Part shown: one piece after another, positions 48,205 through 50,228 of the stretch
Layout: every line of letters begins with the position of its first letter
How positions within the stretch are numbered: position 1 is the stretch's first letter
From: a virus
Strand: one strand, 5' to 3'
Length of the DNA: 64,000 nucleotides
IMG/VR virus record: IMGVR_UViG_3300045988_141926
Span: 64,380-128,379 of that record
The notes under the pieces: model-generated
Told to the model about the DNA's origin: nothing
Database searches by the model: none
Seen by the model: the letters and a program-made list of their open reading frames with translations, nothing else
Translations under genes and position numbers: made by a program

Positions 48205-49395
48205 ATGTATAAAAAAACTTATGATTATGGACATTATTTAGAGCGATTATTTCCAGATGAAAAACGAGATATTAAACATACTGTAAAAAGTATTACATTT
48301 ATAGTAACTGAAGACTGTTCTATGCGTTGCACATATTGTTATTAGCATAATAAATCTTCTAACCATATGAATTTTGAAACGGCTAAAACATTTATTGATT
48401 ATTTATTATCTGGAGAAAAAGGTTTTAATTCTTATATTGATTCTAAAAATTGCTTAGGATGTATATTGGATTTTATTGGAGGAGAGCCATTCCTTGAAAT
48501 AGAGCTAATAGACCAAATTGTTGATTATTTTAGAGAATAGACTTTTAAATTACATCATCCTTGGGCCACTAATTTTAGAATTAGTATTTCTTCTAATGGA
48601 CTTGCTTATTTTGACCCTAAAGTGCAAAAATTTATTGAAAAAAATAAAGATGTTTTATCATTAAACATAAGTATTGATGGGAATAAAACACTTCATGATA
48701 AATGTCGTATTGACACAGAAGGAAATCCTACTTATGATAGAGCAATGGCAGCGATGAATCATTATGTTAATTATTATCATGGATATAGAAACTCTAAATT
48801 AACCATAGCTCCTGATAATGTTAATTATTTAGCTGATGCTGTTATCGAAATGATAAATAATGGTTATCAAGATATTAATCTTAATTGCACCTATGAAAAA
48901 GGTTGGGAGCCTCATCATGCAACTACATTATATTATGAATTAAAAAAAATTAGTGATTACTTATTAAAAAATAATTTAGAAGATAAAATTTTTCTCTCTA
49001 TTTTAGACCCAACTTTTGGTCATGCTTTACCAGAAGATCATTTAATTAAATGGTGTGGTGGTACTGGTTTAATGATAGCTATTAATTGGAAAGGTGAAAT
49101 TTTTCCCTGTCAACGCTATGCAGAAAATTCATTAGGAAATAATCAAATACCTTATACTATTGGAAATTTAAATGATGGAATAGCTGTTAATCCTATCGAA
49201 TTAGAACGAGTAAAATGCTTAGATTGTATTAACCGACGTACTGAATCAACAGATAAATGTTTTTATTGTCCAATTGCTTCAGGTTGTGGAGAATGTTCTG
49301 CTTATAATTATGAAATGTATGGTACTCCAGATAAAAAAGCAACATTTATTTGTATTACTCATAAAGCGAGAGTATTAGCAATCTCTTATTTATAG
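48205..49395 (+). CDS. radical SAM / SPASM-domain maturase (anaerobic sulfatase-maturase-like; 2 in-frame TAG)
   Basis: CSMRCTYCY CxxxCxxC; GGEPF; C-terminal CQRY..CLDC..CFYCPIASGCGECSA auxiliary-cluster motifs. Confidence 0.6.
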
Positions 49396-49525
49396 AATAT
49401 GACTCATCAAAAAAATAATAATGTTAATTTATATGAATTAACTATTCCAAAAAAATGGGCATTAGAAGTTATACCCGAAGAAGAATATGAAATGTTATTA
49501 AAAATATCTAAGGGGTGAGAAAGAA

Positions 49526-50228
49526 TTGGTTGATGAATATATAACACCAAAAATTTTTAATGATTTAAAAAATGCTATCGCTGCAGAATGCGATCGTCGA
49601 TGTTATTCAGGAAGTGTTAAAGATGCTTATGGAAGTAAAAGTGGAAAGTATCATAATCTAGTCGCTGATGAAATAATTACCACTGAAGATTATTTCCAAT
49701 ATAAAAATCCATTACAAGCTATTATTGGGACTCAAGATAGCCAACTTTCTAAAATTTTAGGAGAAAGTAGTATTTCAGCTCTTAAAGTTAGTGAAGATGT
49801 TTTAATAAAATATAAAGATTTATTTAATAAAGAAAATATTTTAATATTATAGGCATTAACTACAATATTAAAAGCTGATCCTATAACGGTTACTAATCAA
49901 GCAGGAACTCACTGTGCTGCAAGTTGTACTGGACTATGTTATTAGACTTGCACTGGTACATGTTATAATACATGTAGTGGTGGTTGTAGCGGTGGTTGTA
50001 GGGGTGGTTGCAGCGGTGGTTGTGATGGAAGTGGAGGCGGCGGTGGCGGCGATAGCAGCGGTTGTTCTGGCTGTGATAGTGGTTGTGGTGGTTTCTGTAC
50101 TGGAAGCTGTCATAGTACTTGCACTAATTCTAGCGGCTCTTGCGGTAGATGTGGAAGTGGATGCGATAGCTAGTGTGCAGAAGGATGCCGTGGAAGCGCC
50201 AGCTCAAGTAGTACAGTACCTGATTAAT
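49526..50228 (+). CDS. precursor-like protein: 108-aa N-terminal region + Cys/Gly/Ser-rich C-terminus (CSGGCSGGCRGGCSGGC...), read through 2 TAG
   Basis: frame of ORF 49526..49852 continues through TAG at 49850 into ...AASCTGLCYQTCTGTCYNTCSGGCSGGCRGGCSGGCDGSGGGGGGDSSGCSGCDSGCGGFCTGSCHSTC... Confidence 0.45.

Follow-up and report, generated by a model that had tools for sequence, protein, structure and literature searches.

The window analyzed here, a stretch of 64,000 nucleotides (nt) from the IMG/VR virus record IMGVR_UViG_3300045988_141926 (positions 64,380 to 128,379 of that record), carries a gene for a radical S-adenosylmethionine (SAM) enzyme with a SPASM domain and, starting 8 nt past its stop codon, a gene for a Cys-rich repeat protein, its putative substrate (Table 1). 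The initial annotation, made from the sequence alone, treated the two as a unit; they turned out to belong to a five-gene cassette (47905..51105) consisting of an accessory gene, the enzyme gene, the substrate gene, a gene for a 188-amino-acid (aa) protein and a paralogue of the accessory gene. With the standard genetic code, the enzyme gene is split into three open reading frames (ORFs; 48205..48345, 48367..48540 and 48622..49395), no ORF is called for the Cys-rich region, and a 107-aa Val/Ala-rich ORF (49914..50237) is reported there. Every interruption in the region is a TAG, and reading TAG as a sense codon gives five tightly packed genes on the plus strand. Neither the enzyme-substrate pair nor about 20 neighboring genes of low G+C content (GC) hold an in-frame TAA or TGA.

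Table 1. Genes and signals of the cassette, followed by other features of the window (positions within the window)
Feature	Position	Strand	Remarks
Radical SAM/SPASM enzyme gene, CXXX-repeat target family	48205..49518	+	437 aa; TAG codons 48343, 48538, 49393; TGA stop 49516-49518
Substrate gene, whole	49526..50227	+	233 aa; TTG start; TAA 50225-50227; TAG 49850, 49943, 50171
Substrate residues 1-129, putative helical docking domain	49526..49912	+	TAG at 49850
Substrate residues 130-233, CXXX-repeat core	49913..50227	+	21 Cys, 29 Gly, 21 Ser; TAG 49943, 50171
Promoter-like site TTGACA-17-TATAAT	47843..47871	+	12/12 sigma-70 consensus; within the 119-nt gap 5' of the cassette
98-aa accessory protein	47905..48201	+	One in-frame TAG, 48058; phmmer
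188-aa protein	50240..50806	+	TAG 50507; no function assigned
94-aa paralogue of the accessory protein	50821..51105	+	No TAG; phmmer
Intrinsic-terminator-like hairpin	51112..51140, T-run to 51150	+	12-bp stem, 5-nt loop; 7 nt past the last cassette stop
Suppressor tRNA, anticodon CUA	38777..38850	+	ARAGORN; "Pyl" label due to the anticodon only
Sodium:dicarboxylate symporter-family protein	31933..33108		306.9 bits
Papain-family C1 peptidase	~33400..34198		Peptidase_C1, 38.5 bits
Radical SAM-like protein, TAG-rich (9 TAG)	34215..35480		Radical SAM N-terminal matches
Formate/nitrite-transporter-like membrane protein	35434..36030		62 bits

The radical SAM gene called at 48205..49395 in the initial annotation is real and holds three in-frame TAGs, but its end had been set too early. 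Past the TAG at 49393 there follow 41 residues that match a C-terminal stretch conserved in the family (P415, W418, A419, I422, I423, E427 and L431), so the gene ends at 49518 and not at 49395. Likewise, the Cys-rich gene does require TAG 49850 to be decoded, as had been proposed, but three in-frame TAGs are involved and not one, and the more than 25 Cys expected for its product come down to 23 by count, of which 21 lie in the core. The TTG start of this gene is preceded by the Shine-Dalgarno-like sequence AAGGGGTGA at 49510-49518, which overlaps the 3' end of the enzyme gene, and both the TTG and the N-terminus of the protein are kept in relatives L001 and L087. It could be argued that the Cys-rich ORF is no gene at all, the pair being stop-broken, decaying pseudogenes or the true product being encoded in the Val/Ala-rich frame, given that the standard code breaks both genes at TAG and that no uninterrupted ORF over the core is longer than the Val/Ala-rich one. 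We consider the probability of this negligible. TAG alone interrupts the pair, the segment past TAG 49393 is conserved protein sequence, and the substrate has 64 homologues in standard-code phages. Moreover, the log-likelihood per codon is highest in the Cys frame, and the differences in the core, counted by codon position, are 15/14/49 to L087 and 5/3/18 to L001, dominated by third positions. Judged by the 64 homologues and this third-position bias, translation follows the Cys-rich frame; by the same evidence, together with codon log-likelihood, the Val/Ala-rich ORF, which had been a concern earlier, is excluded as a real product.

Where a local read-through of TAG had been assumed, the sequence evidence indicates that the recoding is genome-wide and corresponds to code 15 (TAG = Gln), with the suppressor tRNA encoded in the window itself. 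This tRNA, required for all cassette genes except the one for the 94-aa protein, lies in a tRNA array at 26727..43592 (26 tRNA genes are present in the window). In our own reading of its sequence, it has a U1-U72 mismatch and G73, which we take to be the Gln-like identity features known from E. coli, and the array lacks a tRNA-Gln with a standard anticodon. TAG served as a stop in 0 of 30 sampled genes (25 end in TAA, 5 in TGA). Within the enzyme, the TAG at codon 47 aligns with a Gln that is at least 90% conserved in the motif C-x3-C-x2-C-Y-Q, standard-code bacterial homologues included, and TAG and CAA are exchanged in both directions between the window and L001/L087 (e.g., CDSqC in the window, with q for TAG, is CDSQC in L001). 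The use of TAG follows base composition: in low-GC genes (18-30% GC) Gln is written as CAA 132, TAG 75 and CAG 4 times, and in higher-GC genes (38-47% GC) as CAA 44, CAG 121 and TAG 1 times. The low-GC genes form islands at ~13.4-25.2 kb, 34.2-36.0 kb and 47.9-51.1 kb, in which TAG makes up about one-third of the Gln codons and effectively takes the place of CAG. The cargo of these islands includes radical SAM, glycosyltransferase-like and transporter-like genes, with no recognizable structural genes.

By its sequence, the enzyme is a full member of the NCBIfam family TIGR04115 ("radical SAM peptide maturase, CXXX-repeat target family"), with its cofactor-binding Cys motifs intact. It scores 411.4 bits (E = 4e-123) against a cutoff of 350, and its residues 28-395 align with profile positions 2-358 of 359. 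Three other assignments were considered and rejected, namely the PapB-family ranthipeptide maturases (NF047865; 163.9 bits, cutoff 340), since CX3D/E acceptors are also nearly absent from the core of the substrate; the SCIFF maturases (TIGR03974; 110.5 bits, cutoff 425), where the N-terminal recognition element (RRE) of CteB falls outside the alignment; and the anaerobic sulfatase-maturating enzymes (anSME, TIGR03942; 63.7 bits, cutoff 349), where the similarity is structural only. The earlier description of the enzyme as anaerobic-sulfatase-maturase-like is therefore valid at the superfamily level and no further. Among the remaining hits of the hidden Markov model (HMM) searches are the QhpD-type family TIGR03906 (81.2 bits, cutoff 453), Nif11-type families and phrog_1802 (E = 1.3e-54). 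The radical SAM motif reads C38-x3-C42-x2-C45 and the SPASM cysteines C284-x12-G-x4-C302, C338, C352-x2-C355-x5-C361-x2-C364 and C383, the last spacing being x2 where x3 is canonical. All of these Cys, including the SPASM clusters already recognized in the initial annotation, are invariant or at least 90% conserved in 21 homologues.

A profile of the enzyme family aligns with CteB (5WGG/5WHY) at E = 2e-34, beginning at CteB residue 89. The AlphaFold2 (AF2) model of a homologue in which the accessory protein is fused to the enzyme has a mean predicted local distance difference test score (pLDDT) of 91.4 and a predicted template modeling score of 0.90, and its closest solved structures in Foldseek are CteB (E = 1e-19), anSME (E = 1e-15), ChlB and SuiB. 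In the protein databases, at least 6,551 relatives are found at E ≤ 1e-20, some of them bearing the TIGR04115 name from NCBI and JGI. Matches of the bacterial type end near residue 395, and a conserved C-terminal tail of about 40 aa is extra to them. Against GenBank phages, tblastn with the enzyme recovered only three uncultured fecal phages above 26% identity (best value, 37%) and distant radical SAM proteins of the SPN3US type; the same search with the substrate gave no match, probably in part because of the low-complexity filter. Nor did tblastn with the 580-aa protein encoded at 7109..8851 recover a related phage from GenBank. Some relatives of the maturase (P0120, P0157 and P0077) contain Hint/intein domains (PF07591, PF14890, PF13403), which makes the enzyme gene an intein host in some genomes.

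The substrate combines a putative docking domain with a periodic core. Successive Cys of the core are spaced by 4 (nine times), 14, 3, 4 (four times), 7, 3 and 4 (three times) residues, i.e., 16 of 20 spacings are 4. When the core was shuffled, 0 of 100,000 permutations attained nine 4-spacings in a row. The core opens with the family motif HCAASCTGLC, in which C130, C134, G136 and C138 are invariant (C-x3-C-x-G-x-C), and the docking-domain residues that are nearly invariant across the family (K15, E21, R24, R25, G29, S30 and P62) are all present. The N-terminal domain, which the initial annotation had singled out, does have homologues: the 64 homologues of the substrate share the architecture of helical domain plus core, and many of them have a precomputed match to PF27846 (tSAM_targ_Cxxx_rpt). 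The AF2 model of the homologue P0044 shows a five-helix N-terminal domain (pLDDT 82-96 over residues 1-100) and an unstructured core (pLDDT < 50). Structural neighbors of the N-terminal domain were not informative, with BFVD returning only uncharacterized members of the family. Among 192 distinct long targets, the median number of Cys is 29 (range, 9-145), the Cys run starts at a median residue of 107, and 74% of the Cys spacings are 4 and 21.5% are 3; the X positions are mostly S, T or G.

Some variation in the arrangement of the targets was also noted. In five bacterial or prophage loci (L128, L129, L135, L139 and L147), the substrate is circularly permuted, with the CXXX repeats first and the helical domain, recognizable by the pattern F..L+..I..E..RRG ... 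EH..K, at the C-terminus. Apart from these permuted versions, no extra C-terminal (receptor-binding) domains were seen on the long targets. Many phages have tandem targets, i.e., two substrate genes separated by ordinary TAA, TAG or TGA stops; selenocysteine insertion or read-through at these stops was considered and rejected, as the stops are ordinary and the targets two separate genes.

The accessory proteins are a recurring part of the system. The 98-aa protein matches, by phmmer, 71 ORFs in the fetched loci, nearly all of which end at the start of a radical SAM gene; it also matches a 100-aa ORF of L005 (E = 9e-5). The 94-aa protein, 27% identical to it, gives 67 matches to the same accessory ORFs upstream of radical SAM genes. 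In enzyme homologues of about 540 aa, the accessory is fused at the N-terminus; by eye, the 98-aa protein resembles the N-terminal extension of P0129 and P0117, and in the AF2 model the fused accessory forms a strand, a long helical hairpin and two strands ahead of the radical SAM core. The 98-aa protein had no match in Pfam, NCBIfam or PHROG. In many relatives, the gene next after the one for the substrate encodes 175-205 aa (the o182, o185, o187 and o204 ORFs), in the position of the 188-aa protein of the window. In sequence, the latter is similar only to a 187-aa protein of L082 (E = 3e-5 to 1e-4), and neither hhalign between the groups nor iterated HMM searches linked it to the other similarly placed proteins.

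The promoter-like site and the terminator-like hairpin of Table 1 bracket the five genes, which is no more than suggestive, both being pattern matches. Within 47.6-51.4 kb, the site at 47843..47871 is the only perfect promoter match, although the 29 promoter-like sites in all do not exceed the number in shuffles (26.4), and four terminator-like sites occur in the cassette region against 1.0 expected. The cassette is flanked by a gene for a DUF2828/DUF7788 protein on its 5' side and one for a vault-like protein on its 3' side, and the same cassette between the same flanks is found in relatives on contigs of 90-196 kb, with further carrier contigs of up to ~200 kb in database tables. The 508-aa DUF2828/DUF7788 protein (46259..47785), which adjoins the tRNA-rich region, matches phrog_850, "RNA-binding protein" (E = 6e-136); with the standard code, a shadow ORF runs antisense over the full length of its gene. 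The 830-aa vault-like protein (51247..53739) scores 77.8 bits with the shoulder domain of the major vault protein and 34 bits with a vault repeat, exceeding the Pfam cutoff in each case; it has no PHROG match and is conserved in L001 and L087.

The wider distribution was assessed with an alignment-based scan of IMG/VR using relatives of the enzyme, as a scan with the single enzyme sequence gave no match and the target-family alignment was too variable to serve for locating loci. At least 457 viral contigs were matched, and 80 loci were kept for a count of pairing. In 79 of these 80 viral loci, an ORF with a CXXX run lies on the same strand within about 2 kb of the enzyme relative, the single exception being truncated; for bacterial genomes the figure is 66 of 80 loci. 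The gene neighborhoods show the enzyme, the ~100-aa accessory and the CXXX protein to occur as a set across hundreds of phages and prophages. The proposal of the initial annotation that the radical SAM enzyme adjoins a Cys-rich, precursor-like substrate is borne out by this count and by the TIGR04115 score, and we regard the family identity and the pairing of enzyme and substrate as very nearly certain. Two gene orders dominate the viral loci: accessory-enzyme-substrate-o~185 and substrate(s)-accessory-enzyme. The closer bacterial relatives almost all belong to Clostridia and other Bacillota and have the same long substrates and the accessory, and the distant ones (36-40% identity), in Anaerococcus, Peptoniphilus, Tissierella and Ruminiclostridium, have short, peptide-like targets of 54-134 aa and no accessory.

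In most relatives, the cassette appears, from the annotation of its neighbors, to lie between baseplate/tail-fiber genes and the endolysin gene, inside the late operon. Genes for baseplate wedge, tail fiber and endolysin flank it in L013, L035, L036, L044, L095, L107, L115 and L004-L006, and baseplate hub genes are also among the neighbors in phage and prophage loci. Prophage loci of cultured strains include L115 in Anaerobacterium chartisolvens DSM 27016, L107 in Desnuesiella massiliensis mt10, L095 in Neglectibacter timonensis SN17 and L101 in Eubacterium pyruvativorans i6. L115 has no strong plus-strand promoter-like site upstream of the cassette and no plus-strand terminator-like site flanking it, and its o185, accessory and radical SAM genes have overlapping stop and start codons. 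Similarly, no plus-strand promoter or terminator signals flank the cassette of L013, which has plus-strand terminator-like hairpins inside it. In L006, a contig of 165 kb, two complete CXXX cassettes of opposite gene order flank one 500-aa endolysin with Phage_lysozyme2, CHAP and PG_binding_1 domains.

Taken as a whole, the locus is probably best explained as a self-contained five-gene cassette encoding a phage-type CXXX-repeat radical SAM maturation system in a large phage that uses code 15. The enzyme lacks an N-terminal RRE of the CteB type. In the ~540-aa homologues, the accessory occupies precisely this place as a fusion, and it would bind the substrate's helical domain and thereby provide docking. 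The 5'-deoxyadenosyl radical would then abstract a hydrogen from a neighboring residue and the Cys sulfur would be joined to that carbon. Working along the core, the enzyme could thus produce small thioether rings arranged like a ladder, with one ring for each CXXX unit and up to about 21 in all. Because the cassette encodes neither a protease nor an exporter, the cross-linked core would probably stay on its helical domain. Given the late-operon, tail-proximal position in most relatives, the product would most likely be made late and either become associated with the virion or tail or be released at lysis.

The individual parts of this proposal differ in strength. Thioether chemistry, which is suggested by analogy because the nearest characterized relatives are PapB, CteB and QhpD, has in our estimate an even chance of being correct. 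Another reaction may take place on the core instead, such as the conversion of Cys to formylglycine as in anSME, epimerization or C-methylation, or the core may be a metal- or Fe-S-binding, metallothionein-like domain. anSME is indeed a structural neighbor with Cys as its target, Cys makes up about 20% of the core in a setting of small residues as in metal-binding proteins, the core has no defined fold in the AF2 model, and the carboxylate acceptors needed by PapB are rare. However, the families nearest in sequence after TIGR04115 are thioether formers (PapB, SCIFF maturase and QhpD-type at 164, 110 and 81 bits against 64 for anSME), the strict Cys register across the 192 proteins suggests a repeated local ring and not scattered ligands, and the obligatory linkage of enzyme and substrate argues that the Cys are the targets of the enzyme. 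We therefore consider these alternatives quite improbable.

A late or virion-associated role for the product is put forward tentatively, as somewhat doubtful. Still more speculatively, the CXXX proteins could be an unrecognized class of tail-associated structural proteins, in which the helical domain anchors the protein to the baseplate or fiber and the radical SAM enzyme makes a laddered, protease-proof rod at virion assembly, and the jumbo, code-15 phage of the window would have turned the cassette into a TAG-locked unit that is autonomous. Alternatively, the system might be a classical pathway for a peptide (RiPP) that is made on the ribosome and modified posttranslationally, with the 129-aa helical domain as an oversized leader comparable to those of the NHLP/Nif11 type and the core cleaved by a host or phage protease to give a diffusible antimicrobial or signal released at lysis. 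The enzyme does sit in a clade of RiPP maturases (PapB, SCIFF, CcpM and Nif11-type hits), and in bacteria the family's targets are short and resemble precursors, with short leaders. The occurrence of the helical domain at either end of the core (the five permuted loci) is reminiscent of leader versus follower peptides, and the cassette of the window, with a promoter and a terminator of its own as far as pattern matches go, is autonomous. Nevertheless, no protease, exporter or immunity-like membrane protein is encoded in the cassette or recurs beside it, no Gly-Gly or other conserved cleavage motif is seen at the junction of domain and core, cores with up to 145 Cys far exceed known RiPP cores, and most phages have the cassette inside a late operon of tail and lysis genes. 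On balance, a classical RiPP seems unlikely.

Several observations weigh against the proposed thioether maturation system and its late, tail-associated role. To our knowledge, no member of TIGR04115 has been characterized to date; searches of the literature for biochemical or biological studies of TIGR04115 or the CXXX-repeat family found none, and those for phage ranthipeptides and phage-encoded RiPP radical SAM enzymes yielded nothing on the CXXX family. The substrate itself reaches only 13 bits with TIGR04117 (cutoff 50), in a weak match to residues 16-40, i.e., to the N-terminal domain and not to the Cys-rich core, and has no match to TIGR04114 at E ≤ 0.1. Acceptors of the PapB type are scarce, with 5 Asp and 1 Glu in the core, of which only D166 stands four residues after a Cys (the acceptor position of CX3D/E), and with D/E at ~1-5% of the X positions family-wide; the acceptor residue must therefore differ from that of PapB. 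The accessory fold also departs from the canonical RRE topology. Moreover, the cassette of the window lies outside a tail module, between the DUF2828/DUF7788 and vault-like genes and with promoter- and terminator-like signals of its own, and looks more like an autonomous accessory cassette. Such a unit, away from recognizable tail genes, weakens the structural reading. Finally, no cultured phage in GenBank has a close relative of the enzyme (tblastn).

The initial annotation had also described a module of the same architecture at 15-19 kb. This module is analogous and not homologous. The 206-aa protein encoded at 16780..17400 has a tail repeat Y-[GS]-[ST]-[RQC], with Tyr (not Cys) at every fourth residue, and its N-terminal domain is unrelated to the docking domain of CXXX targets (hhalign probability, 2.7%). 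Its 57 homologues, all 46-98% identical, occur only in this phage clade, have no Pfam domain on record and carry tail repeats such as RYGSRYGSQYNTCYSTCY, in which Tyr is invariant. Three radical SAM-like genes flank it (15328..16281, 17412..18848 and 20365..21768); they belong to other families, with no TIGR04115 match above noise, and the product of the nearby ORF 18848..20065 has a sub-threshold SPASM-domain match only. Judging by its sequence, the 206-aa protein resembles a radical SAM substrate of a "YXXX-repeat" kind not described so far. The further claim of a radical SAM protein beside a papain-like peptidase at 33.4-35.5 kb was confirmed by the matches given in Table 1. Two membrane transporters, an unusual cargo for a phage, are encoded next to these genes.

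The enzyme family is large, with the relatives and viral contigs counted above, and has been named by comparative genomics. The present analysis sets apart a phage-type form, in which four components recur. This form is mostly found between baseplate/tail-fiber genes and the endolysin gene in phages and prophages of gut Clostridia, is also carried by cultured lysogens, has as its putative substrate a protein with a folded domain and as many as 145 Cys and not a short peptide, and is written in TAG-recoded, low-GC genes in one lineage of large phages. For annotation, this means that without translation in code 15 both genes of the pair come out as fragments plus a Val/Ala-rich shadow ORF. If the product were a cross-linked component of the virion, it would represent a new kind of phage protein maturation by enzymatic radical cross-linking; if it were a released peptide, it would stand for a very abundant, unexplored class of phage-borne RiPPs in the gut. 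The value of the system lies in its unexplored chemistry and its association with phage tail and lysis genes.

With regard to the genetic code, the window resembles the code-15 (TAG = Gln) gut phages described before (bioRxiv 10.1101/2021.08.26.457843; PMC9523058) in having a tRNA-CUA in a tRNA array, in the absence of TAG as a stop and in the concentration of TAG in a subset of genes. It differs in that its TAG-rich genes coincide with islands of sharply lower GC content (18-30% versus 38-47%), and that the cargo of the islands is of the radical SAM and glycosyltransferase-like kind, without recognizable structural or lysis genes.

As for the maturation system, the enzyme-substrate pair belongs, on sequence grounds, to a pair of families that NCBIfam and Pfam already list, i.e., TIGR04115 with the targets TIGR04114/PF27846 and TIGR04117, a family defined by comparative genomics only. 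Both have an enzyme above the cutoff, the radical SAM/SPASM motifs and an adjoining C-x-x-x protein rich in Gly, Ser and Thr. Compared with the bacterial short-peptide form, whose targets are 54-134 aa long, the substrate of the window has a helical domain of ~129 aa, and the system adds a separate ~100-aa accessory in two copies, a ~40-aa tail on the enzyme, a fourth gene for a protein of ~188 aa and code 15. Among systems in which the modified protein is kept, QhpD, a SPASM radical SAM enzyme, reportedly installs Cys thioethers in QhpC, which remains a functional subunit of quinohemoprotein amine dehydrogenase; QhpC is a small enzyme subunit with three Cys-Asp/Glu links, has no repeat and is not viral. 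The enzyme of the window stays far below the cutoff of the QhpD-type family (81 against 453 bits).

The closest solved structure is that of CteB (5WGG, 5WHY), a SPASM maturase that forms thioethers in the Cys-rich SCIFF. CteB has an N-terminal RRE, whereas in the system of the window this position is empty or taken by the unrelated strand/helical-hairpin/strand accessory, and SCIFF, with six Cys in 45 residues, is without the long periodic repeat of the core. By HMM score (163.9 bits), the closest characterized enzyme is PapB, which cross-links CXXXD/E motifs in PapA to give the ranthipeptide freyrasin (PMC10739248). PapB needs an Asp or Glu at +4, whereas the core of the window has the next Cys at this position and acidic residues are rare, and PapA is a short leader-core peptide, unlike the substrate described here. 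Nevertheless, PapA is likewise built on a repeated C-x-x-x register, and PapB makes one thioether per unit.

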